64,000 bases of DNA, taken from positions 80,600,001-80,664,000 of the forward strand of contig OZ024743.1 in NCBI GenBank assembly GCA_964016885.1, written 5' to 3'. Both the position numbers and the translations under genes were made by a program. Below the pieces are notes generated by a model. That model did no database searches. It saw only the letters and a list, made by a program, of their open reading frames with translations, and had not been told where the DNA came from. Shown here piece by piece: positions 14,550 through 58,628 of the stretch. The stretch's first letter is position 1; the number at the start of each line of letters is the position of its first letter. This DNA is from Eledone cirrhosa (Eukaryota).

Positions 14550-14610
14550 GTGGTGATGATGGTGATGATGATGACGATGACGATGATGATGATAATAATA
14601 ATAATAATAA

Positions 14611-14641
<31 letters not shown>

Positions 14642-14823
14642 AAGAAGAAGAAGAAGAAGAAGAAGAAGAAGAAGAAGAAGAAGAAGAAGAAGAAGAAGAA
14701 GAAGAAGAAGAAGAAGAAGAAGAAGAAGAAGAAGAAGAAGAAGAAGAAGAAGAAGAAGAAGAAGAAGAAGAAGAAGAAGAAGAAGAAGAAGAAGAAGAAG
14801 AAGAAGAAGAAGAAGAAGAAGAA
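14550..14823. repeat. (GAT)n-(AAT)n-(AAG)~70 compound microsatellite
   Basis: Direct reading; immediately precedes the first R4/Dong-like copy. Confidence 0.95.
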
Positions 14824-17285
14824 ACAGCTCACCATGAAGAACAAACATGGGAAAATATAACAGTTGAACAGTTGCGCATGGCTCTAAGAAAAACCAGCAA
14901 ATGGAAATCCCCAGGAAAAGACAAAATACAAAACTTTTGGATAAATGCCTTCACAGAGTCTCATGAGCTGTTAGCCCAACTTTACAATGAAATAGTTAAG
15001 GAGCCAGAAAAGATACCATCATGGCTAGTTAACGGCATTACATTCCTGCTACCGAAGAATGATGAGACAAATAATCCCAAAAATTACAGACCGATAACCT
15101 GCTTGACCACAATGTATAAAATTTTAACATCGGTCCTAACTGAATACACATATGACCACCTGATAACAAATGACCTATTTCCCATTGAGCAGAAAGGGTG
15201 TAAACGAGGCTCATATGGCTGTAAGGATCAGCTTCTGGTTAACAAAATGATACTGGAAGATTGTCATAATAGACACAAAAATCTATCGATTGCTTGGATA
15301 GATTATAAAAAAGCATTCGATAGTTTGCCACACAGTTGGATTGAAAAATGTTTAGAGATTTTCAAAATATCCCCCGTTGTCAGGAGGATTTTGTCATTCA
15401 GTATGAAGACATGGAGAACGACACTCCTTTTGAATAGTGAAACAAAATCGCCGGAAGCTGGAGAAGTTAATATTAATTGTGGAATTTTTCAGGGTGACTC
15501 TTTATCACCGCTTTTATTCTGCATCGCACTTATACGATTAAGTAAAATGCTCAATGAAACAAAACATGGATATAGAGTCTATGACAAAACCATTAATCAC
15601 CTATTCTACATGGATGACCTGAAACTATTTGCAAAAAATGATGAACAATTGCAAGGGCTATTATCTACTGTGAAGCAGTTCAGTGATGACATTAAAATGG
15701 AATTTGGACTGGATAAATGCGCCAAAGCAACGTCCACCAGAGGAAAGCTGCTGAAGAGTTCAGACATTAATCTTGATCGGGGGAACGTGATAAGAGAACT
15801 TGATCAAGAAAAATCTTACAAATATCTAGGTGTTTGTGAAGGAGACGGAATCAAGCACTCGACAATGAGGGAAAGGATAAGGAAGGAATGTTACCGCAGA
15901 GTCAGAGCAATCTTAAGAACGGAATTGAATGCAAGGAATAGGATCGATGCCATAAACACGCTTGCCATACCAGTAGTAACCTACAGTTACAATGTCATCA
16001 CAGAGATCCGTAGGCTCGATACAAAAATCCGAAAATTCTTAACCATGCACAGAATGCATCACCCTAAGGCAGACATGGATAGAATATATCTCCCTAGGAA
16101 AGAAGGAGGACGTGGGTTAATCCAGTTAGACATTGCGTTGAAAACTGCAACAATTGGATTATCCACATATCTAAGGGAATCACATGATTGGATGATCAAA
16201 CTCGTTTTGAAACACGAAAGCACCAAAAGATCATATTCCATTACAAAAGATGCACAAAGATACAGTAATGGACTACAAATCTCAGAAGTCCCATTTACTG
16301 CTGAAATGGAAAACACAGAAAAAGCAAAGCAGGTAAAAGTAACTGCAAAGAAAGAACTGCTACAGAAACTGGCTAAGAAATGGCAAGAAAAGCCTCTGTA
16401 TGGAAAATACCCAGAGCGAGCTAACAATCCTGATGTTGACAAAACTTTAACCCATCAGTGGTTGGCATCCTCTGGACTGAAATCGGGGACTGAAGGACTG
16501 ATTATATCAGCACAAGATCAGTGTCTGCCAACAAAAAATTACCAAGCCAACATAATAAAAAATGGGTGCAGCCCATTATGCCGTGTATGCAAAAAACAAC
16601 CAGAGACCATTGACCATATAATTTCAATGTGCAGTCCTATAGCTCCAACCGAATACCTAAACAGGCATGACAGAGCTGCACAATACATACATTGGATAAT
16701 GTGTAAGCATTTTGACCTGCCCCATCAAAAGAATTGGTGGGAGCATCAACCACCTCCCATACTTGAAAAAGATCACATCTCAATCTTGTGGAACTTTAGC
16801 ATCCAAACAGACCGAAAAATAGATGCAAATAGACCTGATATAATATTGAAGGACTTTCAAAGGAGGGTATGCCTGCTAATTGATATGTCTGTTCCAATAG
16901 ACAAGAATGTAACTATAAAAACATTTGAAAAATTGAGCAAGTATAAGGACCTGGAGATAGAAATTGGAAAAATGTGGAAATTGAGAACTAAAACAATACC
17001 AGTGGTTGTAGGCGCTCTGGGAATGATACCTAAGGGGTCTAACGACTACTTATCGCAAATCCCAGGAAACCCGCGTATAGGTGATATACAAAAGATAGTA
17101 CTAATGGGAACTGTCCATATACTAAGGAAGATCCTGTCAATATAAGTACATCACAAGTCTAAACACTAAGGATGCATGTGTGAATATGTATGTTCTTTCT
17201 TGAACATGGCGGACCTTGTTGTCTCTTGAGGTCACTGGTTGTGACTTGGTGATAACTCGTATGAACGTAAAGCAAGATAAATGCA

Positions 17286-17286
<1 letters not shown>
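14824..17286 (+). mobile_element. R4/Dong-like non-LTR retrotransposon, family A, 5'-truncated
   Basis: RT-CCHC-RLE ORF, 140-nt 3' UTR and (TAA)n tail; near-identical to 37615-40070. Confidence 0.92.
14872..17145 (+). CDS. RT + CCHC zinc finger + restriction-like endonuclease (N-truncated, uninterrupted)
   Basis: KSPGKD, NYRPITCL, QGDSLSP, YMDD, CRVC..HIISMC, RHD, RPD..ID..KLSKY motifs. Confidence 0.85.
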   Translation: MRMALRKTSKWKSPGKDKIQNFWINAFTESHELLAQLYNEIVKEPEKIPSWLVNGITFLLPKNDETNNPKNYRPITCLTTMYKILTSVLTEYTYDHLITNDLFPIEQKGCKRGSYGCKDQLLVNKMILEDCHNRHKNLSIAWIDYKKAFDSLPHSWIEKCLEIFKISPVVRRILSFSMKTWRTTLLLNSETKSPEAGEVNINCGIFQGDSLSPLLFCIALIRLSKMLNETKHGYRVYDKTINHLFYMDDLKLFAKNDEQLQGLLSTVKQFSDDIKMEFGLDKCAKATSTRGKLLKSSDINLDRGNVIRELDQEKSYKYLGVCEGDGIKHSTMRERIRKECYRRVRAILRTELNARNRIDAINTLAIPVVTYSYNVITEIRRLDTKIRKFLTMHRMHHPKADMDRIYLPRKEGGRGLIQLDIALKTATIGLSTYLRESHDWMIKLVLKHESTKRSYSITKDAQRYSNGLQISEVPFTAEMENTEKAKQVKVTAKKELLQKLAKKWQEKPLYGKYPERANNPDVDKTLTHQWLASSGLKSGTEGLIISAQDQCLPTKNYQANIIKNGCSPLCRVCKKQPETIDHIISMCSPIAPTEYLNRHDRAAQYIHWIMCKHFDLPHQKNWWEHQPPPILEKDHISILWNFSIQTDRKIDANRPDIILKDFQRRVCLLIDMSVPIDKNVTIKTFEKLSKYKDLEIEIGKMWKLRTKTIPVVVGALGMIPKGSNDYLSQIPGNPRIGDIQKIVLMGTVHILRKILSI

Positions 17287-17324
<38 letters not shown>

Positions 17325-17328
<4 letters not shown>

Positions 17329-20300
17329 TCTTTATTGACAACAAGGATTTACATAAAGTAGACATTAAGGACAGTACAGGACAATACAGGACGGTTCAAA
17401 TGGGCATTTCTGCGTGTAAAAAAAACAGAGGATGTAATAAAAAATATTTGTGGAGAAAGCCCATTAAAAGGCCACAGTGACCGTGACCACCAGGGCAAGT
17501 GCCCTATCCCAGTTTTACACCTTTAATTTACAGACACATACTCAGAGTAGGCCCCATTCACTCGGGCCATACTTGCTTCTCTCACCCATCTTTCAACAAA
17601 AAGTCAATCAGGGCATCACCGAAGAGGTAAGTGCTCGTCTTCAGCCCTTTCAAACGTGTCCACCATACTATCTCTTTCGCCATGGCCACCAGACAGATAA
17701 AAACTGTCTGCCCTTCCCGGCTAAAGTAAGATCGCGGGGCAATCCTCAGAATGGACTCAGCTGATAGCCGGATCCGTCCTACACGTGACAGCAGGTGTTC
17801 GACATAAACCTACAAGTCAGCAATGCTCGGACACTGGACAAGTGCGTGCAGGACGGTTTCGTCGCCCTGCGCGCATCTCGGACATGCCCATCTGACGGCA
17901 CCTCCATGCCTGTAGAGTTTATCCCGAACTGGCAAAGCTCCTCGGTAGCACTGCCAGGCCAGGGATTTCTGGAAGTTGTCCATAGGCCCCGGCACGAAAG
18001 TTCTTCCGAAGAGATTGGCTAGTTGATTTTCGTCGACGCCTAGAATTTCTCCAAGTACGTCGTCGCTCTTCCCCTCCCTAATCCTCTATAGAACGCCAAG
18101 GAGGAGTTTCCACCGATCACATTGCCCGATTGGTCGAGGGTTGTGAGCGCCTGAAGACATTCCAGTCTCCAAGCGCTCCCTCTCGGTCTTCGCTTGACCC
18201 AGGACTGCAGCTCCGTCAAGGAGACGAGCTGGGGAAAGACGTGTCTAGCAAACGGCGACCACAACTGATCACCGTCGAGGAAGAGGTGGAGATGTCGTAG
18301 CCTGAGCGCGTGTCTGCGCATCATAAGCCACGGCATGCCCAGCCCTCCACGTAGCGGGTGTTGACAGCAGATGGACCGCCTGACCATCGGAGCGCGTTCC
18401 TTCCACAAAAAGCGAAAGAGCAAATGCTCCAGCGCAGTCAGGCGGGGCTTGAGACAAGGTACGACGGTCAGGCGGCAGTAGATGACGGACGCGATGTACG
18501 CGTTAGCTACCTCCGCTCGACCTTTCAGGGATAGCTTCCTCTCCGCCCATTTCTGGGTCACCTCGTCCCAGTTTTTGTCCGTCTGGATATCCGGACCGAA
18601 CCAGACCCCTAGCAATTTAACGGTCCGTCCGTCCAGCGCCCGACGACGCTGTTGGACGGCATGGACCTGCCTCTACAGGTGCCAAGCTGCAGGCCCACTG
18701 ACTTTTCCTGGTTGATCAGTGCTACTGTCACCACTTCGTATTCTCTTAGTGTAGTGCCGATCGCCTCGATGTGTTTGGCGTTCGACACCACTACGGTGAC
18801 ATCGTCCGCATATGCTGACACGGATCTTCCGCATCCTAATTCGCGCGGGACCCCACTCAACATCTCCAGTTTGTGCAGTAATGGCTCGAGAGTTAATACG
18901 TACAAGAGGGACGAGAGGGGACATCCTTGGCGGACCGAGCGCATGATGTTGAACGGTTCCGAAAGGTGACCGTTCACTCTCACCACAGAGCAGATGTCGC
19001 TGTGCATGGCAGCGATCCAGCCTCTGAAGACGGGCCCAAAGCCAGCCGCCCTCAGGACTGCCGCTAGGTAACGATGGTCGACCCTATCGAAAGCTTTCGA
19101 CTGATCTAAATTGATCAAGGACCCACCCGTGCCAGGTTCCCTAGCTACCCTCTCTACGATGTATCGCATGAGGTGGAGGTTGTCGTGGATGGATCTGTCG
19201 GGAATGGCGCATGTCTGCGCCTCTCCCACCAGACCACCAATGACAAGCGCCAACCTCTTTGACAGCACCTTGGCCAAAATCTTGAACTCTGTGTTTAGCA
19301 GAGTTATAGGCCTGAAATTATCTATGTTATCCCCCTTGTTCGGATCCTTTCTCAGCAGCGCCACAGCTCCTCGGCTCACAGAGCTGGGAATTCTCCCGTT
19401 CTGTTGCCAGTTGCAGTAGACGTCCGCCAAGAGGGCTCCGAACAAGTCTGGCATCTGTACGTAAAGTTCATAGGGCAGACCATCCCAACCAGGCGATTTA
19501 CTCCTTGTGCTGCCAGTCATTGCCTCCCGTACTTCAGCGGCTGTTATCGGCTTTTCACAACACTCCGCCTCAGTGGCCGAGAGCCGCGGCAGTCCGTCGA
19601 GGTAGACACTAAAGTCCATCCCTCGATTCGGCCCGCCGCTGCCCCCGAACAGCTGGGCGAAGTGTCGCTGGAAAGCTTCATACATTTGGCCGGGATCGAG
19701 TAGCATGCGCCCGTCGTGGTCCACCAAAGACCGGATCGTGGCTTTGTTGCCACGACGCGCCTCCGCCACTCGTGCCCATTGAACGGCTTTCGTCCCCTCG
19801 TGTCTCAGAGCACGCACCCTAGCTCTGACAACGCAGCCTTCGTGCTTTGCATTGAAAAATTGGTCAAGGCCAATTTCGCCGCAAGTATGTCGGTTGCGAT
19901 GCCTTTGCTAAGCGCCTCGTCTAATTTTCTAACTAATTCTCCCTCTGCTCTATTTTTCTCTATTGCTAAAGCCTTACTAAACCTAATGGACTCTATTCTA
20001 ATTGCTCTTTACAGAGCAAACCACCACTTGTTGTTGACGATGTCCCCCGTCAACGCCCGCTTAACTAGTTCGCTAATCCGGTCTCTGTAGGCCTTGCGCG
20101 CTGGTAAGGACGCGTTTAGCTTCCAGTAGCCGGGTCCTCGTCTATGAAGCCTATCTAAGTCAAGCACACAGATCACGAATTTGTGGTCCGTGTAGCTGAC
20201 TATCTTGAATTGTGGACAGCCTATGCTAGACCTATCTATTTCCCTACAAAATACTCTATCTAGATATGATCTGGATGAGCCTATGCGATTTGTCCAAGTC

Positions 20301-23025
20301 CACATTGGCACATTCGGGAAATCCAATCGGTACCTGTCAGACAGTTCAAAACGCCTGAGCAGGTTGGTGAGGCTGTTGCACCCTCCTTCCCTATCCACTG
20401 ATCCCACACAGTCCCAGCGTGCATTTAAGATCCCGTTCCAATCGCCCACTAACACTAAAGAGCGGGACGTTCCAAGAAAGGTCTCCAGACGCCGGAAGAA
20501 ATCAGGCCGCCCTGCTCCTGTCGGGCATAGACGGCCACTAGCCTGAAAGCTTGCCCGTCTCCGCTGGTCACGTCCAGCACCACCAGCTTACCTTCTGGGT
20601 CCAGGAAGATGGCCCGTATGGCGAGATCCAAACCTCTCCGAAAAAGCACAGCAACTCCTCCCCCCGATCTCGGACGGCTGGGAGATGCGTACACATCGTA
20701 GCCGCCGAAGATCGGTGCGAAGGCCCGTGCTTCGGAGATTCTGGTCTCGCTGATGGCCACTACATCTATGTTTAGTGACCTGAGGTCGTTGAGCAGGTGG
20801 CCCTGCTTCTATGACGACCCCAAGCCACGCGCATTTATGCTGCCTATTCTGAGTGAGGTTATGTTGAAATGGAGTGGAAAAGACGGGAAAGACCACTTAC
20901 CTTACTTCTCGTAGAGGAAGGATGGTTTGTCCATCCTTTTCACTGCTTGTGGCCTCCTCCGGAAGGATGTCCTTATAAATCCTCCTGGAGAGTGCTTGTC
21001 GGAAGTCTCCGATGTCTTTGGGGAATTTTTGTTTTAGTGTCGTGTACGTTTTCTGTGTGATGCGAGTGATTTGTATGTGTGGAGGTGGTGAGAAATTTTG
21101 GGTTGTTGTGTAGTCTTTTTCTGTGATGCTGGTGTTGTGTAATAATTGGTTGTTGTTCAAATTTATACTGTGTAGTGTGTATCGTTTTGGTTGTTTTGTT
21201 TTGTTTGCGTTTGTTGTGGGTTTGTTTCTGTTTCGCTTTTTGGTGACTTTTGCGGTGTTGGTGATGGTGGTGTTGGGGTTAATGAATGTGTTGGTGTTTG
21301 TGGTGATGGGGTAGGTGATGCTGGTGTGGATGGTGGCATATCTGTCCTAACTTTTTTGTTTGATATTTTATTTGTTTCCCTCTGTATTTTGTTTTTGGAG
21401 GGGGAAGGAAGAGAATTTTTTCTTTTTTTGTTTCTTTTTTTCTTTTTTCCTGATACCGTTACCCACTCCTCGTCGTCACAATCTGTCTCCAGTTGAGATA
21501 GGCCGGGGAGTGGAAAATCCTCCACAGACGTTGGTTTTGGTTGTGGCGTGGTGGGTGGTGTAGGCGCTGGTGCTAGTTCTGAAGCGTTGGGTGGTGGTGG
21601 TGTTGGTTTTGCTACTGTTGCTGGGGTTGTTGCTGTTACAGTTGCTTCTGTTTTTGCTGCTACAGTTGTTGCTGCCATCTCTGCTGCTGGTGGTGTTGAT
21701 GGTTGAGTCACTGGGGTGGGTAAGAGAGGTGGCCTCAACCTTTTAGCCTAGGGCAGAAAGCCCTTAGGTGGGTTCCTTCACCACAAACGTCACATCTAGT
21801 CCTTCTGCCCTCGACAATTACAGTGAGGTGGCTGCCGTCAGTGAGGTCTATTACCTCTGGGATCTCCTCAATGCTTTTTTTGGTCCGCTTGGATCAGGAG
21901 TGGCATCCCTGATCTGGACCAGTTCTCCTGCTTTTCTTTCCCTATTTCGATTATTTTGGTGTTGGCTTCGATGCCGGCGAGGACGGCAGCTATTAGCCAG
22001 GGAATTTCGATGGCCGGTGGAACGTGGGTCACCCTGATCTTTACGAGTCTCTGGCCACAATAACTTGGGACGAGTGTGAAGTCGTCACTTCTTAATGGGG
22101 CCATAGAGTGTTCTCTGGCCTCCTGTGGTGTTTCAAAGAACACGTCCACGGTTCCATATTTCTGCCCACGTCTGATGTGGGGGTTTTTTGCCCACACATG
22201 TCCCAAAGCTTTTGGGATTTGGGACTCGGATGCCCGTTCCACTCGGCGCGATTTTATATTAATTGTTCGATATGACACGTTGCATAGGCGCCGATGCTCC
22301 ATTTTATTAGGTGGGGGGTGAGGGAGACTCTGTACCCATCTTTCTTTACCATTTTTGGGGCTTCTTCTAATTCCTCCTGAGTTACCTGAAATGCTTCGCA
22401 CTGTTTTGCTACTCTGGCAAAACTCAGGGTGGTTTTCTTAATGTCATTGTTGCTGTTGTTGTTATCGTTATTTTTGTTATTATTAATTTTAGTTTCAGTT
22501 GTGGTGGTGGTGGCGTCAGTGGTGTTCGGTGTGGAAGAGTTCATTTTGGTTGAATTCATTTTGAAATCACTAATTAATTTTTTTTTTTCTTTTGTTTCTG
22601 TTGTCGCGGTGGGGGGGGGGGTTGTCGCGAGGTGGTGGTGGTGGCGGCTTTAACACCTGCAGTCATTGGTAATAGCGGGAAATGAATGTCTGCCTCAGAC
22701 AAATTTAAAATATTGCTACTGCTTATATTTTTATTGTTGGCAAACGTAGTAATATTTACAATGGTGGTGTCGGTGTGAGGTGTTAGTTTGTGAGGAAGAA
22801 GTGACCCTGAGTCATCCATGATTTTTCAAAGAAAAATTTTTGTTTGATAATTATAAAAGTTTAAATTTTGGGCTCAAGGCCCCACTCTTTTTCGGTGTCC
22901 TTTTCAGATAACAATGTATGTGCACTTATATACAGTTAACAATAAAAATGTTCCATCAATGGCAATTTTAAACAACTGAAAATAACAAACCTTTGCGGAT
23001 GATACGATTTACTACGTAGGTCGCC
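17325..23025 (-). mobile_element. Tx1-like (L1 group) LINE, full length, frameshifted (copy B)
   Basis: ORF1 ~22819-20897 (N/T-rich, RRM-like KYGTVDVFF, knuckle CDVCGEGTHLRAFCP); ORF2 ~20862-17528 (APE SETR/GDWN/SYLDR/TDH, RT YADD, CPRC..H..C); AATAAA then (ATT)n tail; (AAT)n at both ends. Confidence 0.9.
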
Positions 23026-23046
23026 AATAATAATAATAATAATAAT

Positions 23047-24094
23047 GATTTCGTTTATTAGCCACAAGGGCCGACATGTAGGGGACAATACAAAGACAGG
23101 GACAGTGGGGGTTTACAATAAGGTCGAGTAAAAGTGCACAATGGCAAGACTAATTTAACAATGAAGATACAAAAATATAAAATAAACTATGCATAAATAT
23201 AATAAAATAAATTTCCTGATAGGGGATGCGACACCCTGGGGTGACTCGGGTACCCCACCAATCCTGAACCACCCTGCACTTCTAGGGCACCCAGGGAGAG
23301 CACCCCTCTCCTCAAGTTAGCTAGCCTATAGGCGCATGCTCAGAGTAGGCCCATTCACACGAGCCATTCTCGCCACATTCACCCACCTTTTAGCAAATGT
23401 ACTGGGGAGCAGCACTTCTCTCTCCATCCTCAACTTCCTTTCCAGGTGAAACTTGAAGAAGTTGATGAGGGATTGGCCGAAGAGAAAAGTGTCTGTCTTC
23501 AGTCCTTTTAACCTGGTCCACCATATAACCTCTTTCGCAACTGCCACCAGACAGAGGAAAATTTCCTGCTCTTCCTGACCTAAGGAAGGCGGTGGATCGA
23601 TCTTCACTATGGACTCGGCCGATAGCCGGATTCGTTCCACACGCGACAGTAGCTGTTCGACATAACTCCACGAGTCAGTAATGCACGGACATTGGACAAG
23701 TGCGTGCAGAACGGTTTCGTCGTTCTGTGCGCATCTTGGGCAGGTCCGTCTGACAGCACTTCCGTGCCTGTAGAGTTTATCCCGAACCGGCAGTTCCCCC
23801 ATTAGCAGTGCCAAGCGAGGGATTTCTGGAAATTGTCCATCGTCCCCGGCTCAAAAGTCCTCCGGTACAGACTGGTCAGTTCGACTTCGTCGAGGCTCAA
23901 AGCTTCTCCGAGTGCGTCATCGCACTTGCCCTCCACTAATCCTCTATAGAACTCGAGAGTGGAAGTTCCACTGATCGCATTGCCCACTTGGTAGAGGGCA
24001 GTGAGTGCCTTCACCATTCCAGGTGCCAGACACCCAGTCTCGGTCTCTTCTTGACCCAGGACTGCAGCTCAGTCAAAGAAATGAGCTGCGGAAA
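23047..24094 (-). mobile_element. Tx1-like LINE, 5'-truncated (copy C)
   Basis: ORF2 C-terminus LPVRDKLYRHG..CPRC..ETVLHALVQCP, stop 23326-23328; closest to copy E; (AAT)n on both sides. Confidence 0.9.
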
Positions 24095-24154
<60 letters not shown>

Positions 24155-24156
<2 letters not shown>

Positions 24157-27100
24157 TTTCTTTATTGGCCACAAGGGCTGACATCAAGAAAAACAATACA
24201 GACGGCACAGGACGGTACAGGACGGTACGGTGTGGGTTTTGTGCGTGTAAATATTTTTATTATTTATATAAGAAAAGAAAAAAGGACATAGAAACATAAC
24301 TATATATAAACAATAAAAAAGAAAATTGAAACAATGAAAATTTCCCCAATAGGGGGAAAACCTCCGAGGGTTACTCGTGGCGAAAACCACACAAAAGACC
24401 ACGGTCACCCTGACCACCAGAGCAAGCGGCCTCTCTCAATTTTTCCATTTCTCAAACTACAGACATATATTCAGAGCAGTCCCGTTCACTCGGACCATTC
24501 TCGCTACATTCACCCACCTTTCAACAAACTTGCTAGAAGGCAGCACTTGCCTCTCCACCCTGATTTTCCTCTTCAAGTGAAACTTGAAAAAGTTAATCAG
24601 GGATTCGCCGAAGAGGAAAGTGTGTGTCTTTTACCCTTTCAACCTTGTCCACCACACAATCTCTTTCGCCATGACCACCAGGCAGATGAAAACCGCCTGC
24701 CCTTCCTCCTCGAAGGAAGACGACGAGACCATCTGCACAATGGACTTAGTCGATAGCCGGATCAGTCCTACATGCGACAGCAACTGTTCGACATAGCTCC
24801 ACAAGTCAGCAATGCTCGGGCACTGAACGAGTGTGAGCACGACGGTTTCGTCGCTCTGCGCGCATCTCGGACAGGCTCGGCTGAGGCACTTCCGTGCCTG
24901 TAGAGCTTATCTCGAACCTGCAGCGCTCCCCGGTAGCACTGCCAGGAAAGGGATTTTTGGAAGTTATCCATAGGCCCTGGGCTGAAAGTTCTCCGGAAGA
25001 GAGCAAACAGCTGATCTTCGATGCCCAGGATCTCTCCGAGAACGTCGATGCTCTTCCCCTCCACTAGTCCTCTATAGAACGCCGAGGTGGATGTTCCACC
25101 GATACTGGTGCCCAGCTGGCAGAGGGCAGTGAGCGCCTGGAGACATTCCAGTTTCCAAGCGCTATCCCTCGGTCTTTTTCTGACCCAGGACTGCAGCTCC
25201 GTCAAGGAGACGAGCTGTGGGAAACGGGCCTGGTGAACGGCGACCACACCTGTTCACCGTCAAGGAAGCACCAGAGATGTCCAGCCTCAGCGCATGTTTG
25301 CGCATCATCAGCCATGGCATGCTCAGTCCTCCACGCAACGGGTGTTGACAGCAGATGGATCGTCTGACCATGGGAGCGCGTCCCTTCCACAAAAAGCGGA
25401 AGAGGAGGCGCTCCATTTGGTGAGAGTTGGGCCGGAGCAAGGGACGACGGTGAGGCGGTAGCAGATGACGGATGCGATGTACGCATTCGCCACCTCCGCC
25501 CGGCTTTTCAGGGACAGCTTCCTCTCGGCCCATTTCTGGGTGAGGGATGCCACCTTGCTCGTCACCTCATTCCAGTTTTTCTCCATCTGGAGGTCCGGTC
25601 CGAACCAGACCCTGAGCAATTTAACCGGTCCGTCCGTCCAACGCCCCACAACGCTGTCGGACGGCATGGACTTACCTCTCCAGGTGCCGAGCTGCAAGCC
25701 CACCGACTTTTTCTGGTTTATCTTTGCTCCTGTCACCGCTTCGTATTCCTTGTGAGCGGTGCCGAGCATATAGGACGTGTCTGGTGCTCAACACCACCAA
25801 CGTGATGTCGTCGGCGTAAGCTGACTCGGATTTCCCGCATCCTAGTTCGCGTGGGACGCCCCTCATCGCCCCCAGTTTGTGCAGTAACGGCTCGAGAGCC
25901 AAAACATACAAGAGGGATGAGAGGGGACAACCCTGGCGGACTGAGCGCATGATACTGAACGGCTACGACAGGTGACCGTTCACCCTCACAACTGAGCAGA
26001 TGTCGCTGTATATCGCCGCGATCCAACCCCTGAAAACGGGCCCGAAACCGGCTGCCTCGAGGACCGCCGCCAGGTACCGATGGTCGACCATATTGAATGC
26101 TTTGGATTGAACCAAGTTGATCAGGGCCCCACCCGTGCCAGGTTCCTTAACCACCCTCTCTATGATGTATCGCATGAGGTGGAGGTTGTTGTGTATGGAT
26201 CTGTCCGGAATGGCGCATATCTGCGCCTCTCCCACCAGACCCTTGATGACAAGCGCCAACCTCGTTGCTAACACCTTGGCCAAAATCTTGAACTCTGCGT
26301 TTAGAGGGGTTATGGGCCTGAAATTATCGATATCATCCCCCTTGTTCGGGTCTTTTCTCAGCAGCGCCACCGCTCCCCGGCTCACAAAACTGGGAATGCT
26401 CCCGTTCTGCTGCCAGTTGCAGTAGACGTCTGCCAAGAGGTCACCGAACAAGTCTGGCATAAATGCATAAAACTCGTAGGGCAGACCATCCAAACCTGGC
26501 GATTTACTCCTCGTGCAGTTAGCCATCGCTTCCCGTATATCACCGGCTGTTATTGGCTTTTCGCAACACTGTGCTGCGGTCGTCGAGAGCCGAGGCAGTC
26601 CGTCGAGGTATGCACTGAAGTCCATGACCCGATCCGGCTCGCCGCTGCTCCCGAACAGTTCAGCAAAGTACTGCTGAAAAGCTTCACACATCTACTCGGG
26701 TTCGAGCAACACGCACCCGTTTTGGTCAGACAAATACCGAATTGTGGCTTTGTTGCCACGTCGCGCCTCTGCCACTGGGGCCCATTGGACGGCTTTTGTC
26801 CCTTCGTATTTCAGAGCACACGCTATAGCTCTGACAACGCAGCCTTCGTGTTTTGCGTTGAAGAATTGGTCGAGTGACAATCTCGCCGCAAGCACGTCGG
26901 TTGCGATGCCTGTCCTAAACGCCTCTTCTAACTTTCTGACAAGCTTGTCCTCTACTCTATTTTCCTCTATCACTAGTCCTTTGCTAAACCTAATCGACTC
27001 TACTTTAATTGCTCTTTTCAGGGCGAACCACCACCTGTTGTTGACGACCGCTCCCGTCAACGCCCGCTTAACTAATACGCTAATCCGGTCTCTCTAGGCT

Positions 27101-30100: not shown

Positions 30101-30168
30101 TTTAGAACGGTTGAAAACGAGGTAAAACGTTGAAAAAAACTGGAGGCGATAAGAAGCGTGGCTTCACC
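24155..30168 (-). mobile_element. Tx1-like LINE, full length, frameshifted (copy D)
   Basis: ORF1 29961-27903 (poly-N, KYDTLDVFF, CYLCGSKGHLRAFCP); ORF2 27870-24457 (APE, RT YADD, Zn finger) in fragments. Confidence 0.9.
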
Positions 30169-30186
30169 AACAATAATAATAATAAT

Positions 30187-33100
30187 GATTTCATTTATTG
30201 GCCACAAGGGCCGACATATAGGGGACAATACAAAAGACTGGGACAGTGGGGTTTTACAGAAAAATCGAGTAAACAATATGAATAAAGAAAGTAACAATAA
30301 CAAAGTAACAATAAAGTAACAAGAAAATTTACAACAAGAAAACATTCCCCAATAGGGGGGATGACCACCTAGGGTTCGCTCAGGTACCCCACCAGTCCTG
30401 AACGACCCGACGCTTCGAGAGAACCCTGGAAGGGCACCCCTCTCCTCTTCAAATTTACCCACCTACAGCCGCATGACCAGAGTAGGCCCACTCACACGGG
30501 CCATTCTCGCCACATTCACCCACCTTTCAGCAATTGTACTGGGGGGGGGGGGGGGGGCAGCACTTCTCTTTCCACTCTCAGCTTCCTTTCCAAGTGAAAC
30601 TTGAAAAAGTTGATGAGGGATTGGCCGAAGAGAAAAGTGTCTGTCTTCACTCCTTTCAACCTCGTCCACCATACAACCTCTTTCGCTTCTGCCACCAGAC
30701 AGAGGAAAATTGCCTGCCCTTCCTGGCCAAAAGAAGGCGGCGGGTCGATCTTCACTATGGACTCGGCCGATAGCCGAATCCGTTCTACACGCGACAACAG
30801 CTGTTCAACATAACTCCACAAGTCAGTAATGCACGGACACTGGACGAGCGCGTGCAGAACGGTTTCGTCGCTCTGCGCGCATCTCGGGCAGGTCCGTCTG
30901 ACAGCACTTCCGTGCCTGTAGAGTTTATCTCGAACCGGTAGTGCCCCCCGGTAGCACTGCCAAGCGAGGGATTTTTGGAAATTACCCATCGTCCCCGGCT
31001 CAAAAGTCCTCCGGTACAGACTGATTAGTTCGACTTCGTTGACTCCCATAGCCTCTCCGAGTGCGTCGTCGCACTTGCCCACCACTAATCCTCTATAGAA
31101 CTCGAGAGTGGAAGTTCCACTGACCGCATTGCCCGCCTGGTAGAGGGCAGTGAGTGCCTGGCAACATTCCAGATGCCAGTCCACCCAGTCTCGGTCTCTT
31201 CTTGACCCAGGACTACAACTAAGTCAAAGAAACGAGCTGCGGAAAGGCCCGTCTGACAAACGGCGACCACACCTGTTCACCGTTTAAACAGAATATCTGG
31301 AGATGCCGCAGCCTCAGCGCGTGCCTACGCATCATTAGCCACGGCATGCCCAGCCCTCCACGTAGAGGGTGCTGGCAGCAGATGGACCGCCTCACCAGCG
31401 GAACCTGACCCCTCCACAAGAATTTGAAGAGGAACCGCTCCAAGATGGCGAGGCGCGAACGGGGGCAAGGGACGACAGTCAGACGGTAGTAGATGACGGA
31501 CGCGATGTACGCGTTCGCCACCTCCACCCGACCTTTCAGTGATAGCTTCATCCCAGCCCATTTCTGGGTGAGACTGACTACCCTGTCCGTCACCTCATCC
31601 CAATTCTTATCCACCTGGAGGTCTGGCCCGAACCAAACCCCTAGCAACTTTACCGGTCCGTCCGTCCAGCGCCTAACGACGCTGTTGGACGGCATAGACT
31701 TGCCTCTCCAGGTGCCGAGTTGCAAGCCCACTGACTTTTCCGGGTTAAGTTTTGCTCCCGTCAACCTTTCATATTCCTCCAATAAGTTGCCGACCACCTC
31801 GATTTCTGAGGTGTCCGACACCATCACGGTGATGTCGACCGCATAAGCCGACACAACCTTTCCGCGTCCCGGCTCTAGCGGGATGCCCTGCACAGCTCCA
31901 GCTTCCGCAGTAAAGGCTCGAGAGTCAATACTTACAGAAGGGAGGAGAGAGGGCACCCTTGATGGACCGATCGGGAGACCTGAAACGGTTCCGAGAGGTG
32001 GCCATTAATTTTGACCATCGAGCAGGTGCCGCTGTGCATTGCAGCGATCCAGCTTCTGAAGACGGGGCCGAAGCCAGCCGCCTTGAGGACAGCCTCCAGG
32101 TACCGATGGTCGACCCTATCGAATGCTTTCGATTAATCTAAATTGATCAGAGCTCCACAGAAGCCAGGTTTACACCCTACCCTCTCTATGATGTATCGCA
32201 TTAGGTGGAGGTTGTCGTGAATGGACCTGGTTGGGATTGCGCAAGTTTGCGCCTCCCCAACCAAATCCCCGACGACAAGCGCCAACCTCTTCGCTAACAC
32301 CCTGGCCAAAATCTTAAACTCTGTGTTGAGCAGAGTTATGGGCCTGAAATTGTCTAATGTGTCCCTCTTGTTCTCGTCTTTCCTTATCAGCGTCACTATG
32401 CCCCGGCTCACAGAACTGGGAATACTCCCGTTTTGCTGCCAGTTGCAGTAGAGCGCTTCGAGGTGATTGGAGAACAAGTCTGGCATACTTACGTAAAGCT
32501 CGTAGGGCAGACCATCCAAACCGGGTGACTTGCGCCTCATGCAGCCTACAAGGGCATCCTGAATCTCGGCTGAAGTAATTGGCCTTTCGCAGCGCCCAGC
32601 GTCAGCCGTCGAGAGTTGCGGCAAGCCATCGAGGTAGGGACTGAAGTCCGCCACCATCTCTGACCCGCCACTTCCCCCGAACAACCGAGCAAAATGTTGG
32701 CGAAAGGCCCCACACATCCTCTTGGAATCGTTCAGCTCGAGCCCGTCTCGGTCCGTCAAAGACCGAATCGTGGTTTTATTACCACGCTGCGCCTCTGCCA
32801 CGCGGGCCCATCGAACAGCTTTGGTTCCCTCGTTTCTCAGAGCACGCGCCTTAGCTCTGACAATGCAACCTTCGTGTTTCGCATTGAAGAAATGGTCTAA
32901 TGCCATTCTCACCGCTAGCACATCAGTTGCAATTCCACTACCAATAGCCTCGTCTAACTTATCTACCAACTCTCCCTCCTTTCTATTTTTCTCTAATGCT
33001 ACTTCTTTGCTAAACTCTATCGACATTACTCTAATCTCTCTTTTGAGAGCCCCCCACGATCTATTGTTGACGACTCCCCCTGTCAACTTTTTCTTAACTA

Positions 33101-36100
33101 AATTGTTGACCTGGTCCCTGTAAGCCTTACGTGCCGGAAATGACATGTTTAACTTCCAGTAACCAGGTCCTAACCTACGCGTCTTATCTAGGTCAACCAT
33201 ACAGATCACAAACTTGTGATCTGAATAGGCGACCGTTTCAACACGTGGACAGCTTACACTATTTCTGTCTATTTTCCTAATGAATATCCTGTCTATATAC
33301 GATCTAGATGACCCTATGCGGTTAGCCCAGGTCCACACTGGCGCATTAGGGAAATCTAGTCGGTACCTGTCAGACAGTTGGAACTGGCTGATCAGGTTCT
33401 TGAGGCTTTTGCACACACACACACACACACACACCCCCGCTCCTATCGGATACTACCACACAGTCCCAGCATGCGTCTAAGATGCCGTTCCAGTCCCCGC
33501 TAACAGTAAAGGGCGAGAAGTACCCAGAAAGGCTTCCAGGCGTCTAAAGAAGTCCGGCCGTCCTGCCCCAGTAGGAGCATAGACGGCCACAAGTCTAAAG
33601 GCACCACCTCCATTATTGTTCACGTCCAGGACCACCAACTTCCCGTCCGGGTCCCGGAAGATCGACCTTACCTCGAGATCCAGGCCTTTCCAAAACAGCA
33701 CTTCCACCCCGCCTCCCATTCCCGACTGGCTAACAGATGCAAAGATCTGATAGTCGTCGAAAATGGGGGCTAGTGCGCGCGTGTCGGAAATCCTGGTCTT
33801 GCTGACTGCAATTACATCCATTTCTATAGACCTGAGGTCGTTGAGCAGGTGACCCTGCTTCCAGGACGTCCCAGGCCTCGAACATTTAAACATCCTACTC
33901 TTAATACGGCCATGTTGGCAGGTTAAACAGAGAGAGGAAGGTTTACTTACCTTCCGGGCTCTTGTGAAGGTCAGGTTGTTCGACCTCCATAGTTAGTGGG
34001 GTTTCTTTTGGGAACCCCTTTAAAAGTCTTGAAGTGGGTTTTACGTTCGGGGTTCCCACGTCCAGAGGAAAGCTGTCTCGTATTTCTTTGAATATGTCGA
34101 GCGACATTCGCACCAGAACCAAATCTTCCGGCACTCGAAATGTGCTCGATTTAAACATTTCCCCCTCTTTTTGTATATTTTTCACTTCGTGCTACGAGGG
34201 CCATCAGTTCCTTGTTGGCCCTCCTGAGGAGCACGAAGTTTTGTATGTTTTGTTGGTGTGATTTTATTTGTTTGCGTGGCTATGGTGGTGATGGTTTTGG
34301 TGGTGTTGTTTCGGTTGTATCTGTGTTTGTTGTGAGTGCGATGTCTGTGGTTTCAGATGTTTGTGTGTATATTTGTTCTTGCGTCTGTTTCGGTTGTTTG
34401 CATTTGGGGGATTCTGGTGATGGTGATGGTGGTGTTGATGTTGGTGTTATTGGAGAGATGTTTGCGTGGGTGGTGTCTGCGTTTTTTATTGTGGGTGCTT
34501 TTGTGCTTTGTTGAGTTTTTTTTTTTCTTTTTGTGTTTCCTTTTTTCTATTTTGGGGGATTTGGGATTTCCCTCATCTTCACTACTGGTAGATGAGGGGT
34601 CTGTGTCTGTAAGTGTGTTTGTATGTATGTTTAAGGTTTTATTGGTGTGTGTATTTTTGGAGGGAGGGGGAATTTGACAGCTTTCCTCGTTTCCCCCCTG
34701 GGTGGTCAATGTTGGTGGTGTTTTTTCTATTGGTGTTGTTGTTGGTGGTTTTGCCGGTGCAGGTGTTGGTTGTGGTCCTCGCCCCGGCGTCGGCAGCAGT
34801 GGAGCCTTTCGACCCCTTGCCTCTTTCAGCAGTTGAGGGCAGAAGGCTCGCAAATTGGTTTTTTCCCCACAAACAAAACACTGCGGCCTTTTGCCTTCGG
34901 TCATAATGTGAATGACAGTCCCATTCTGAAGTCGGATATGGTCTGGGATTGTCTTCACATTCTCGGGCCTGATCTGGAGAAGGATCTCCAGGTCAACCCC
35001 GGACCAGTCCTCTCTGGCCGTTCTGGTCACTTCTATAGGGACTGTATCCGTCCCCTCCACAATCACACATCCCAGAAGCCACCACATGTCAAGTCCTCGT
35101 GGGATTCTGGGAATGCGGAGACGGGCCGTTCTTTTTCCCATGTGGGAGGGGTACATTATGACCTTGCTGGTTTTGCAAGGAGTCATGGCGTGTTTCATCG
35201 CGAGGGCTTCTGACTTGAACAACACCGAAATGGTGCCGTACTGTCTGCCCCTCTCTATGTACTGGGTGTCTTCTTTGATGCACCTCAGCGCGACTTCGAT
35301 ATCTTCTTGTGGGATTAACGCTGCCCTTTTGGTTTGTGCTAAGATGCATCTATAATGCACCGTTTTGCGCTCCACTGCCTCAATAGCTTCTACCGGGACA
35401 GTTAAGGTGGCCCAAGTTTGCTCTTGCTTGATGAGCTTCCATGCCTGGGCCAACTTTTCATCTTTGTTTGAGAGGTCCATGTTGAAGCATGGCCTCTTTT
35501 TTGCTGCTGCCGCAGCGAAAGTAGTCTTGTTTTCGTTGGGGGTGTTGTTGACGTTGTTCTTGTTGGTGTTGTTGTTAGCACTGTCGCTGTTATCATTGTT
35601 GTCTTTGCTGCCACCCTTGTTCTCGGTGCAGTTGGTATTGTTGCTGTTGGTGTTGTCGCTATTTGTTTTCGTGTGAGTTGTGTTGATATTGTTGTTGTAT
35701 TTGTTATTTTTTTTTTTGTTATCTGTATTTTCGTTGTCGCTGTTACTGTCATTTTTTTCAAAATTAGAGTTCTTATTGGTATCATTGGTGTCTTTGTTTA
35801 CATTGTTTGTGATGGTGTTTGTGTTATCAATGTGTGTTAATTTCGCTGTAGCGCTCCTCTCAACTTCTACGTCGTTGTCGCACGACAGCCGACATATCGC
35901 TGGGAGGGAGGGGGGGCGTGGCTCAGCCATTTGTTTTTCTTCGTAAATTTTTTAACTTGTAAAAAAAAGTTCAAATATTTGGGCCAAAAGGCCCAAATAT
36001 TAAACTTTCCCCTTCACGGGGCAAAGTCTAAGGGCTTATATCCCTTACACAACAAGAAATATTTAAAAACAAATAATATAAACAGGCAAATAAAGCGACT

Positions 36101-36134
36101 TACTGTGAGCGAGCAAAATACGTCCGCTTAGACC
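30187..36134 (-). mobile_element. Tx1-like LINE, full length, frameshifted (copy E)
   Basis: ORF1 35930-33943; ORF2 33913-30463 in fragments; (CA)n expansion at 33412-33433 inside the APE domain. Confidence 0.9.
33943..35930 (-). pseudogene. Tx1-like ORF1 (N-rich region, RRM-like domain, CCHC-type knuckle, basic patch), frameshifted near the 3' end
   Basis: 525-aa ORF 34353-35930 with QYGTISVLF and CFVCGEKTNLRAFCP; tail ORF 33943-34185. Confidence 0.8.
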
Positions 36135-36160
36135 AATAATAATAATAATAATAATAATAA

Positions 36161-36664
36161 TTCTGAGAAGTGGTATGAGCATAAGCCAGAGTCGGTGATA
36201 GAAAACGATCAGGTGAAGGTGCTGTGGGATTTTAGGATACAGACGGACAAGAAATTGGAACACAATAGACCTGACCTGGTGGTTTTAGACAAGGAAAAAA
36301 GATCGTGCCTGATTGTGAATGTAGCCTGCCCATTCGACACAAGAGTGCAAGAGAAGGAGAGGGAGAAAATTAACCGATACCAGGACTTAAAGTGGGAGGT
36401 AAAAAGGATTTGGAACTACCATGAAGTCAAAGTGGTCCCGATTGTCATAGGCGCACTAGGTACTATCTCAAAGAGTTTCCAAGGATGGTTAAAGAAAATT
36501 GGTCCCGCCCCGCTTTTTGGAACACTTCAAAAGGCATGCTTGCTGGGAGCAGCAAGAACCCTCCGATACGTCCTGAATATCTGAGGTTGCAGGTAGTGGC
36601 TTCTTGATATTCATTTCAACAAACTTTCCAGTTAAATAACATCAATGACTGAAACTCAAAGAAC
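36161..36664 (+). mobile_element. R4/Dong-like family B, short 5'-truncated copy
   Basis: RLE C-terminus (HNRPDLVV..KINRYQDL) and 3' UTR matching 44300-44797; (AAT)n on both sides. Confidence 0.9.
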
Positions 36665-36683
36665 AATAATAATAATAATAATA

Positions 36684-39600
36684 AAAAAGTTACTAACTGA
36701 TATAGAAATTGATCAGATCAAGCTATTAGCACAAAGTCAGCGAAGGGAAAATGAAACATGTGTCAGTGAAAACGAGGTAAACTGTAACACTTCGAATCCC
36801 AGGGTTGGGGCGGAATCACTGGCAACAGAACAAATTAAAGAAAGGATCGAAAAAGTGTAGGGAGTGCATGCTCAGGATGAAACTCCAAATGAAAATAATG
36901 AGATCGTAAATGATAAGGAAATGAATGAGAATGAACTTGCCAACTTGAAGGATGAAATTATGATCGAATGGATGAAAATGAAAGAATCTGACATGGGGTA
37001 ACGAGACACCCTCCCTAAGATCCAGAACTCCAAACAGAACCAAAAGATAATACACAAGACTAACATAATTCTCAAAAACATTATCATCACAAACAAACTA
37101 AACATTACTGATTTAAATCATCTCTATTATGCATCTGCTAAAGTCACCACTCACTTATGTGGAGTGAAGATGAAAAAAACAAAGGAATTCCCACAAGAAA
37201 TCTACTTGGCAAGAGAACATCAATCGCCAAATAAACCTTCTCCGATCTGACATAGAAATTTTAACAAACTATAAAGTAGGTGAACATGTTAAACAAACTA
37301 AACTTAGAAAATTGAAAAAAAAGTACAGTATAAAATCAACATGTGACATAGACATGCTGATAGAAATAATCAAGCAAAAAGTGTCGGCCAAAGCTGCTCG
37401 TATAAGGCGCTTTGAAAAACGATCTAGATTCTATAAGGACAATAATATGTTCAAAAACAACCAAAGAAACTTCTACAGAAAAATTGGTAAGTCAACAATA
37501 ACTGCTAAATCAATACCACCCAAGGAGGAAGTGCAAGAATTCTGGGAAAAGATCTGGGCCGAAGGAAAAGTTCATAACATACATGCCCCATGGATAGACA
37601 GACAAATGAAAGATACAGCTCACCTTGAGGAACAAACATGGGAAAATATAACAGTTGAACAGTTGCGCATGGCTCTAAGAAAAACCAGCAAATGGAAATC
37701 CCCAGGAAAAGACAAAATACAAAACTTTTGGATAAATGCCTTCACAGAGTCTCATGAGCTGTTAGCCCAACTTTACAATGAAATAGTTAAGGAGCCAGAA
37801 AAGATACCTTCATGGCTAGTTAACGGCATTACATTCCTGCTTCCGAAGAATGATGAGACAAACAATCCCAAAAATTACAGACCGATAACTTGCTTGACCA
37901 CAAAGTATAAAATTTTAACATCAGTCCTAACTGAATACACATATGACCACCTGATAACAAATGACCTATTTCCCATTGAGCAGAAAGGGTGTAAACGAGG
38001 CTCATATGGCTGTAAGGATCAGCTTCTGGTTAACAAAATGATACTGGAAGATTGTCATAATAGACACAAAAATCTATCGATTGCTTGGATAGATTATAAA
38101 AAAGCATTTGATTTGAAAAATGTTTAGAGATTTTCAAAGTATCCCCCGTTGTCAGGAGGTTTTTGTCATTCAGTATGAAGACATGGAAAACGACACTCCT
38201 TTTGAATAGTGAAACAAAATCACTGGAAGCTGGAGAAGTTAATATTAATTGTGGAATTTTTCAGGGTGACTCTTTATCACCGCTTTTAATCTGCATCGCA
38301 CTTATATCATTAAGTAAAATGCTCAATGAAACAAAACATGGATATAAAGTCTATGACAAAACCATTAATCACCTGTTCTACATGGATGACCTGAAACTAT
38401 TTGCAAAAAATGATGAACAACTGCAAGGGCTATTATCTACTGTGAAGCAGTTCAGTGATGACATTAAAATGGAGTTTGGACAAGATAAATGCGCCAAAGC
38501 AACGTTCACCAGAGGAAAGCTGCTGAAGAGTTCAGACATTAATCTTGATCGGGGGAACGTGATAAGAGAACTTGATCAAGAAAAATCTTACAAATATCTA
38601 GGTGTTTGTGAAGGAGACGGAATCAAGCACTCGACAATGAGGGAAAGGATAAGGAAGGAATGTTACCGCAGAGTAAGAGCAATCTTAAGAACGGAATTGA
38701 ATGCAAGGAATAGGATCGATGCCATAAACACGCTTGCCATACCAGTAGTAACCTACAGTTACAATGTCATCAACTGGTCAAGCACAGAGATCCGTAGGCT
38801 CGATACAAAAATTCGAAAATTCTTGACCATGCACAGAATGCATCATCCTAAGGCAGATATAGATAGAATATATCTCCCTAGGAAAGAAGGAGGACGTGGG
38901 TTAATCCAGTTAGACATTGCGTTGAAAACTGCAACAATTGGATTATCTACATATCTAAGGGAATCACATGATTGGATGATCAAACTCGTTTTGAAACACG
39001 AAAGCATCAAAAGATCATATTCCATTACAAAAGATGCACAAAGATACAGTAATGGACAACAAATTTCAGAAGTCCCATTTACTGCTGAAATGGAAAACAC
39101 AGAAAAAGCAAAGCAGGTAAAAGTAACTGCAAAGAAAGAACTGCTACAGAAACTGGCTAAGAAATGGCAAGAAAAGCCTCTGTATGGAAAATACCCAGAG
39201 CGAGCTAACAATCCTGATGTTGACAAAACTTTAACCCATCAGTGGTTGGCATCCTCTGGACTGAAATCGGAGACTGAAGGACTGATTATATCGACACAAG
39301 ATCAGTGTCTGCCAACAAAAAATTACCAAGCCAACATAATAAAAAATGGGTGCAGCCCATTATGCCGTGTATGCAAAAAACAACCAGAGACCATTGACCA
39401 TATAATTTCAATGGGCAGTCCTATAGCTCCAACCAAATACCTAAACAGGCATGACAGAGCTGCACAATACATACATTGGATAATGTGTAAGCATTTTGAC
39501 CTGCCCCATCAAAAGAATTGGTGGGAGCATCAACCACCTCCCATACTTGAAAAAGATCACATCTCAATCTTGTGGAACTTTAGCATCCAAACAGACCGAA

Positions 39601-40072
39601 AAATAGATGCAAACAGACCTGATATAATATTGAAAGACTTTCAAAAGAGGTTATGCCTGCTAATTGATATGTCTGTTCCAATAGACAAGAATGTATCTAT
39701 AAAAACATTTGAAAAATTGAGCAAGTATAAGGACCTGGAGATAGAAATTGGAAAAATGTGGAAATTGAGAACTAAAACAATACCAGTGGTTGTAGGCGCT
39801 CTGGGAATGATACCTAAGGGGTCTAATGATTACATATCGCAAATCCCAGGAAACCCGCGTATAGGAGAAATACAAAAGATAGTATTAATGGGAACTGCCC
39901 ATATACTAAGGAAGATTTTGTCAATATAAGTACATCACAAGTCTAAACACTAAAGATGCATGTGTGAATATGTATGTTCTTTCTTGAACATGGCGGACCT
40001 TGATGTCTCTTGAGGTCACTGGTTGTGACTTGGTGATAACTCGTATGAACATAAAGCAAGATAAATGCAACT

Positions 40073-40073
<1 letters not shown>
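36684..40073 (+). mobile_element. R4/Dong-like family A, longer 5'-truncated copy with stops and frameshifts
   Basis: ORF pieces 37312-38127 and 38163-39929 (YMDD, RLE); deletion near 38110 relative to the 14.8-kb copy; (TAA)n tail 40074-40142. Confidence 0.92.
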
Positions 40074-40141
<68 letters not shown>

Positions 40142-40522
40142 TTCAAATATTCAACTTTGTATTGTACATTGTATATTCAAAAAAGAAAATGGCTATAAAT
40201 GGAAGAAGAAGAACCCCCCCCTCCTCTGTCTACACTATATAGAACAGCCAAACAACACCAATCTCACCAACACCAGAAACTAGATACACCACCTACCCCA
40301 TCACCTCTCTGTGTACACTAAACACAACAGCCAGATAACGGCAATTTCACCACCACCACAACCAATCTCAACATAATAATGATAATAATAAATACTATTA
40401 TTATTGTCCCAAGTTTTAAAAAAATGTTTAATCCCAACATTAAGGGAATTTATGTCAACACATATACGCGACTAACCCCATAGATTCACCGAACGGACAT
40501 CAGTAACGACAACGTCGCCCAT

Positions 40523-40739: not shown

Positions 40740-41139
40740 TCAGTATCGACATCACCACCACCACTGTCTCAGTATCGCTACCGCCGCTATTCTCTCCCAT
40801 TGCTTCCTGCTAGTTGCTGCCACCACATTATAGAATTCCTACTAAAAAAGAGGAAGGCATCAAAATATATAGATAGACTCAAAAGAAAAAAGAAAAAACA
40901 AACATCAAAACCAAAGCAGCACAGCAACAACAGCAAAAAAAGAGAAAAACAAACAGAGAAAAACAAAAACAAAAAAAAAACGTAAAGAAAATAAGAATGA
41001 AGAGAGAAACAAGCGGATGGACAGAGAAGAGAAGGGAAAAACTAAGTCAGACATTCGAACACTACATTACAATGAAACTTATGCTTATTCATTTTTGGGG
41101 TTTTTTCTGCCTGTGTGTTTGTTTGTTTATTTGTGTTCG

Positions 41140-44797: not shown

Positions 44798-44807
44798 AAT
44801 AATAATA

Positions 44808-44867
<60 letters not shown>

Positions 44868-57027: not shown

Positions 57028-57031
<4 letters not shown>

Positions 57032-58586: not shown

Positions 58587-58628
58587 TCCGAACTCATTTA
58601 ATATAATAGAGAGATAGATAGATAGATA

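Follow-up and report, generated by a model that had tools for sequence, protein, structure and literature searches.

Dong-like and Tx1-like retrotransposons stacked in opposite orientations and joined by (AAT)n tracts in Eledone cirrhosa

A 64,000-nucleotide stretch of the Eledone cirrhosa genome (assembly GCA_964016885.1, contig OZ024743.1, positions 80,600,001 to 80,664,000; hereafter the window) holds a stack of seven retrotransposon copies of the type lacking long terminal repeats (non-LTR), in which two clades share (AAT)n tracts in opposite orientations. Copies were delimited by self-comparison, Pfam and tblastn of the window. Three Dong-like copies, of a clade with a restriction-like endonuclease (RLE), lie on the plus strand and four Tx1-like copies, with an apurinic/apyrimidinic-type endonuclease (APE), on the minus strand, joined end to end (Table 1). 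All six internal junctions (J1 to J6) and the right end (J7) carry perfect (AAT)n tracts, between 5 and 22 units long. No copy is interrupted by another, since the tblastn pieces run colinearly along every copy, and orientation is sorted by clade (p = 0.016 under a coin-flip model). The original prediction, made from the letters alone, had given this order and these strands, short (AAT)n at every internal junction and the absence of interruption; self-comparison, Pfam and tblastn bore it out, with the junctions recovered in 6/6 cases within about 3 nt of the places named. Absent from it were F and G, two Tx1-like sisters flanked by (ATAG)n.

Tails made by the elements would alone account for most junctions, so the informative ends are the 5' ones. 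Six of the seven 5' ends in the stack meet an AAT tract. All three full-length Tx1-like copies, B, D and E, start where (ATT)n gives way to GG, and the truncated copy C and a Dong-B fragment meet the tract at internal element positions. J5 joins two 5' ends, and its tract is therefore no element's tail. At the 3' ends, TAA tails are found in 4/4 RLE copies of the window and ATT tails in 4/4 APE copies of the stack, reading the opposite way, as had been predicted. Ten tracts of at least four AAT units occur in the window, of which they cover 0.6%. Each has AAT on the plus strand and falls within 14.5-44.9 kb, and all ten adjoin or lie at stack elements or the tail of a full-length Dong-B copy downstream, one being parted from Dong-A1 by an (AAG)70 tract. 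The commoner AT (56) and AC (51) tracts occur at none of the stack's element ends. Together with read joints at other loci, the count of 5' ends and the head-to-head J5 support an association of both clades with (AAT)n that extends beyond the tails to the 5' ends.

The joints at other loci come from sequencing runs, four of ten listed runs having been compared with window positions 24140-40090. X8 consists of raw reads of a PCR-amplified restriction-site-associated DNA (RAD) library from another sample, whose species label is that of the best-matching run; X4 may be the source sample. Statements below refer to the joints and ends listed, namely 15 of 6,638 joints, 12 of 800 joint-letter rows and 24 of 19,295 loose ends. 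In X8, 18,774 reads reaching the 5' tract of D run on as (AAT)n, with a median of 81 loose letters and an agreement of 0.68, which is a number of reads and not a share of all D 5' ends. At least five distinct joints reach a tract, all with the polarity seen in the window. The joint from D head to Tx1 tail is carried by 1,240 X8 reads with 61 starts. It also occurs in two X4 contigs and in four from X2, a run with another organism code; the short side there measures only 18 letters. Other D heads lead into Dong-A truncated at 38968 (225 reads) or at 39233 (180 reads), with a short AT or TAA overlap. The 3' part of Dong-B leads into a Tx1 tail in 324 reads, and a Dong-A tail into a Tx1 tail in 255 reads, the latter possibly being J1 itself. 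Apart from this last joint, none is an adjacency of the window, and they do not lie at GCATGC or AATT sites. The same junction types recur at other loci in the reads.

Among the joints listed, about 8% of D-type heads lead through a tract straight into another element. With a constant 8-20% per step and six further steps, the probability of a stack of seven is 3e-7 to 6e-5 per copy, so that a stack of this size either belongs to the far tail of the distribution or calls for some local influence. Overall, stacking recurs, and a stack of seven is rare or locally favoured. The predicted self-propagating landing pad is supported only in part.

Copies B to G are designated Tx1-like on the basis of domain order and similarity. 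Pfam matches spread over the copies present the anatomy of the Tx1 clade, with a CCHC-bearing first open reading frame (ORF1) and an ORF2 with APE, reverse transcriptase (RT) and zf-RVT domains. CCHC knuckles can be read in B, D and E, the L1 endonuclease is the closest PDB match of the APE domain, and the protein matches at 39% one named transposon TX1 149 kDa (P0073). Nucleotide identity is 91% between C and E, 81% between B and D and 76-78% in the other B-E pairs, which gives three Tx1-like families in the stack, beside two Dong-like ones. In E, ORF2 is broken by an expanded G17 run (30541-30557) and an expanded (CA)11 (33412-33434). F and G, about 70% identical to B-E in nucleotides, form a tandem pair on the minus strand at 58.6-61.6 kb, with (ATAG)n-type tracts at both ends, truncated 5' ends included. 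In a tree of all 18 rows, with L042 and P0047 as long branches, F and G group apart from B-E (support 97/95), with equal clustering in 94 of 500 label shuffles. With F and G in (ATAG)n and their sisters in (AAT)n, one Tx1 radiation holds two targets, AAT and ATAG, and in both the A-rich strand would be the priming strand. The window shows one flank type per group, 4/4 for AAT and 2/2 for ATAG; the text of PMC4494074 takes more than 20% of flanks as marking a target-specific Tx1 family.

All six Tx1-like 3' ends have AATAAA, then 4-7 nt, then the repeat, and no poly(A); in C, D and E the letters ATC precede (ATT)n, resembling ATCT tails. The hairpin loop of the APE domain, which varies widely among homologues, reads WTNRIGSSR in B and D (9/9) and WANRIGSSR in E (8/9), where the domain is 60% identical to that of D; this conservation gives modest support to a putative protein determinant shared by B, D and E. 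Of 365 metagenome loci, 80 were kept as relatives with flanks. Nearly all are distant (25-35% identity), only L042 and L050 reaching 42-44%, and a long (ATT)n end was seen in 0/80. Loci L005, L008 and L013, and L022 and L028, end in U2-like or 5S-like sequence, presumably as Keno- and Mutsu-type elements would. Searches of genome contigs and viral contigs returned no relative and no match to the junction motif.

Domain order, motifs and similarity likewise lead us to call Dong-A and Dong-B R4/Dong-like. A single open reading frame encodes RT (RVT_1), then a CCHC knuckle and an RLE (RHD...PD...D...K); both Dong-A copies show the RT-CCHC-RLE motifs, and both Dong-B copies the RLE part. R2 proteins are the best PDB sequence matches, and no named Dong or R4 sequence is among the matches listed (best 120 of 187). 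The N-terminal region of Dong-B is predicted as four helices (predicted local distance difference test, pLDDT, 86) and matches mostly Myb/SANT domains, weakly (Z 5-6; Zeste at Z 5.9, root-mean-square deviation 2.3 over 62 aligned residues), suggesting a Myb-like bundle; no zinc finger was seen in the Dong-B protein P0002. Dong-A and Dong-B share 40% protein identity. A1 and A2 share 96.5% identity but differ in truncation point and indels, and the Dong-B fragment is 92.8% identical to the full-length copy downstream. Segmental duplication of Dong-A as the origin of the two stack ends is ruled out by the different truncations, 56 mismatches and private indels. (TAA)n lies on the Dong sense strand at 4/4 three-prime and 2/4 five-prime ends, and at two more truncated 5' ends in reads.

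Several further observations concern the Dong-like copies and their ends. The Dong sequence just upstream of the break in A1 is AAAGAT, and the (AAG)70 tract there may be an older repeat or junction slippage. The full-length Dong-B (41100-41330, 44798-44870), with a long tail and no 5' tract, may have entered a minimal site and made its tract. An opposite-strand joint inside Dong-B (36245-36465; 3,710 X8 reads, 4 starts) would come from either a Dong-B variant with an inversion or an artefact of the library. A candidate Tx1 ORF1 fragment in opposite orientation at 40.2-40.4 kb was rejected, as it gave only low-complexity matches of 19-26 nt (E 0.07). For ribozymes like that of hepatitis delta virus (HDV), Rfam gave no match at gathering level and six weak unrelated ones. 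Our own HDV descriptor, used without a positive control, matched nothing upstream of Dong-B or in B or D; it matched twice in the 5' region of E, once at the first base of E (36134 downward), against none in 10 shuffles each, and we made no use of these matches.

Table 1. Coordinates of the stack, its junctions and related elements in the window.
Feature	Position	Strand	Remarks
Left flank	14554..14613	+	(GAT)n grading into (TAA)7; (TAA)7 at 14593
(AAG)70	14612..14823	+	Perfect; adjoins truncated 5' end of Dong-A1
Dong-A1	14824..17287	+	R4/Dong-like, 5'-truncated; RT-CCHC-RLE frame without stops to 17145
J1	17286..17324	+	(AAT)13; Dong-A1 and Tx1-like B tail to tail
Tx1-like B	17325..23025	-	Full length, frameshifted; ORF1 with CCHC, ORF2 APE-RT; 5' end (ATT)n then GG; 3' end AATAAA-GAAAGT-(ATT)n
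J2	23026..23046	+	(AAT)7; B head, C tail
Tx1-like C	23047..24094	-	5'-truncated to last ~1 kb; truncation fused directly to (ATT)n
J3	24095..24154	+	(AAT)20; truncated C head, D tail
Tx1-like D	24155..30168	-	Full length, degenerate; 5' end (ATT)nGTT then GG
J4	30169..30186	+	AAC(AAT)5; D head, E tail; (AAT)5 itself 30172-30186
Tx1-like E	30187..36134	-	Full length, degenerate; 5' end (ATT)n then GG
J5	36135..36161	+	(AAT)9; head to head, E 5' end and truncated Dong-B 5' end
Dong-B fragment	~36161..36664	+	Last ~0.5 kb
J6	36665..36684	+	(AAT)6, repeat 36665-36682; Dong-B tail, truncated Dong-A2 head
Dong-A2	36685..40073	+	5'-truncated in N-terminal region; one stop and one frameshift
J7	40074..40140	+	(TAA)22, (AAT)n at 40075-40140; Dong-A2 tail and right flank
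Dong-B outside stack	41150..44866	+	Near full length; (TAA)n tail 44798-44866; 5' boundary uncertain
Tx1-like F	58626..59593	-	5'-truncated; (ATAG)n on + at both ends
Tx1-like G	59634..61571	-	5'-truncated; (ATAG)n-type tracts on + at both ends

In target-primed reverse transcription, an element whose tail reads (TAA)n primes on the TTA strand and one that reads (ATT)n on the AAT strand. Given the opposite tail polarity, the two clades must prime on different strands, probably TTA for Dong and AAT for Tx1. We hold, with moderate confidence, that the stack arose by successive target-primed insertions into one microsatellite, with polarity set by APE nicking together with pairing between RNA and repeat. 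The seven copies would likely have arrived one after another, and the (GAT)n-(TAA)7 of the left flank probably represents the left-hand portion of the microsatellite first entered. Every insertion would split the tract and leave repeat on both sides, so that later copies would land at junctions and not inside elements. RNA cleavage falls 10-30 nt past AAUAAA. As AATAAA lies only 4-7 nt before the repeat, cleavage would fall within it, leaving AUU or AUCU units; Tx1 RNA, cut downstream of AATAAA inside the flanking repeat, would end in a few AUU units taken over from the element's flank. Where the APE domain, with its conserved NRIGSS loop, nicks the AAT strand, these units would anneal to it and complementary DNA (cDNA) would start, without poly(A) and in a fixed orientation. 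Under the same scheme, AUCU units would account for the (ATAG)n-flanked F and G. The six 3' ends without poly(A) and the nearness of AATAAA to the repeat suggest that RNA-repeat pairing may contribute to polarity alongside nicking. Pairing of target-like RNA has been proposed for SART1 and R1Bm in the text of PMC7265360. The original prediction held that RLE and APE converge on one microsatellite but nick opposite strands; the sharing of (AAT)n, the polarity by clade and the differing priming strand stand. Strand-selective nicking is one candidate cause of the polarity; the 3' anatomy of the Tx1-like copies fits RNA-target pairing equally.

A wider proposal can be made only tentatively. The Tx1 radiation may have been retargeted between AAT and AGAT through the target repeat carried on the RNA 3' end, with the endonuclease little changed; one branch would have converged on the (TAA)n of Dong from the opposite strand, Dong tails would seed new tracts, and shared stacks would grow. 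If true, it would represent a naturally occurring, RNA-programmed switch of target in a long interspersed element (LINE).

Among the alternatives, the first in rank, which we nonetheless consider unlikely, follows the original prediction: target and polarity would depend on the endonucleases alone, the Dong RLE and Myb region nicking the TTA strand and the Tx1 APE only the AAT strand, with RNA pairing of minor importance. A swap of the endonuclease domain does switch the target between SART1 and TRAS1 (PMC7265360, in the text covered), the hairpin loop affects the nicking profiles of L1 and Tx1L (PMC1950540, likewise), and B, D and E share a conserved loop. However, this leaves unexplained both the lack of poly(A) in 6/6 Tx1-like copies and the 4-7 nt between AATAAA and repeat, and the L1 consensus nick TTTT/AA given in the text of PMC1950540 fits better the TTA strand, which is the wrong one here. 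The APE region is absent from the truncated F and G, so loop and target can be compared only within B, D and E. Target preference might instead be loose: Tx1 would enter any microsatellite that contains AT and offers an A-rich strand for priming (AAT, AGAT), and the sorting by family in the window would be a chance effect of the small sample. This we judge improbable, although relatives about 70% identical in nucleotides occupy two different repeats, the ATC before (ATT)n in C, D and E is like ATCT tails, and L042, the closest metagenome relative (44% to the Tx1 query, among the 80 loci kept of 365), ends in (AT)27. Against it, the repeat occupied follows the groups of the tree (four AAT and two ATAG copies, with the proportion of label shuffles given above), reads leaving D-type 5' ends run on mostly as AAT, and B-E leave the abundant AT and AC tracts unused.

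Least probable of all, in our view, is that the tracts are element-made tails only and that the stack results from recombination or deletion between tailed copies, or from AAT misjoins in the assembly. The window has no free AAT tract, as expected if elements make them, the full-length Dong-B has a tail and no 5' tract, and no contig spans the stretch. Yet J5 joins two 5' ends, the truncated C and the Dong-B fragment meet tracts at arbitrary internal positions, and heads lie within tracts at other loci in reads; moreover, recombination between tails cannot place a tract on full-length 5' ends, as found in 3/3 cases, and all seven copies are distinct in sequence. Hence we prefer the combination of endonuclease and RNA pairing over endonuclease alone, over loose preference, and over tails with recombination or misjoins, in that order.

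Several points weigh against this combined account. Across the four sequencing runs compared, no spanning read or contig confirms the assembly of the stack. Two of the four Dong 5' ends have no adjoining TAA tract, A1 meeting (AAG)70 and the full-length Dong-B none. The joints and loose ends listed are a small part of the whole, and so yield neither a genome-wide fraction nor a count of wrong polarity. PCR template switching across AAT tracts in X8 would keep polarity too, and two of the six X8 loose ends listed sit at AATT sites and look chimeric. Finally, the loop conservation is modest, 8/9 at a 60% background corresponding to about p = 0.07 (worked by hand).

Elsewhere in the window, a near-perfect inverted repeat of ~350 bp lies beside a (TA)n tract at ~57030-57385 (by eye), possibly a foldback element, and a 49-bp minisatellite spans 46600-47228 in about 12 copies at 95%. 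A short dispersed repeat has four copies (13498-13647, 46263-46399, 46483-46616 and 63534-63611), which we take to resemble octopus short interspersed elements (SINEs).

Microsatellite recognition by APE-type LINEs is described in the text of PMC3812793 as not well understood. Sister Tx1 lineages in different repeats, with an RLE clade on the other strand, offer a compact natural comparison of endonuclease and RNA-pairing control of target and orientation, a distinction that bears on LINE-based gene insertion. They also offer a sequence-level cause for hotspots of transposable elements in microsatellite-rich genomes. The repeat papers on octopus and other molluscs list Dong-R4 and L1-Tx1, without target analysis in the text covered (PMC13282606, PMC9115989, PMC8967140, PMC10294476); among them, the O. 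vulgaris annotation counts 288 hotspots and gives Dong-R4 and L1-Tx1 families as active, and the words "target" and "nested" are absent from its text (PMC13282606). The original prediction knew of no described (ATT)n-specific Tx1 sharing sites with Dong. In agreement, our literature search found neither (ATT)n- or (ATCT)n-specific Tx1 nor site sharing between Tx1 and Dong; Repbase, Repbase Reports, Kojima and Fujiwara 2004 and the supplements of PMC4494074 lay outside that search and may hold such cases.

Dong in (TAA)n has been described in insects, molluscs and cnidarians (PMC7998251, PMC3812793, PMC1635306, PMC3774820), as have an N-terminal Myb-like region in R4/Dong (PMC7998251) and, for B. 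mori, a 5' junction primer of the form TAA7-Dong (PMC3774820), each in the text of these sources. Like Dong, DongAg, DongBg and Darwinula Dong1/2, the copies here have a single open reading frame with RT-CCHC-RLE and sense (TAA)n, and Dong-B has candidate N-terminal Myb-like helices with no zinc finger seen. In contrast to these, two families 40% identical co-occur here and share tracts with Tx1-like elements, and 2/4 five-prime ends have no tract. Microsatellite-specific Tx1 elements are known as Kibi in (TC)n, Koshi in (TTC)n and crocodilian Tx1 in (TTCC/TTTC)n (text of PMC4494074), and telomere-specific Tx1 is known as well (text of PMC10088271). Compared by description, Kibi, Koshi and crocodilian Tx1 share with our copies two open reading frames, APE-RT-zf-RVT, repeat on both sides and tandem copies, whereas the targets here, (ATT)n and (ATCT)n, are not named in the text of PMC4494074.

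The arrangement of two families in one repeat has its own parallels. TRAS and SART insert into (TTAGG)n in opposite orientations (PMC7265360 and PMC10088271, in the text covered). Here as there, two families share one repeat in opposite orientations and form arrays; however, TRAS and SART are both R1-clade APE elements at telomeres, with poly(A) at SART1 junctions, whereas here RLE and APE elements meet in a dispersed AAT repeat without poly(A). In R1 (APE) and R2 (RLE) of 28S ribosomal DNA, as here, unrelated endonuclease types converge on one multicopy target. R1 and R2 use separate unique sites in a gene, and not opposite strands of one simple repeat as here. Both are 28S-specific (text of PMC1635306). 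Every ingredient of the stack has a precedent, and it is not a new kind of system; new here, as far as the literature searched goes, are the Tx1 targets (ATT)n and (ATCT)n, the sharing of one microsatellite across clades from opposite strands, and a difference of target inside one radiation.

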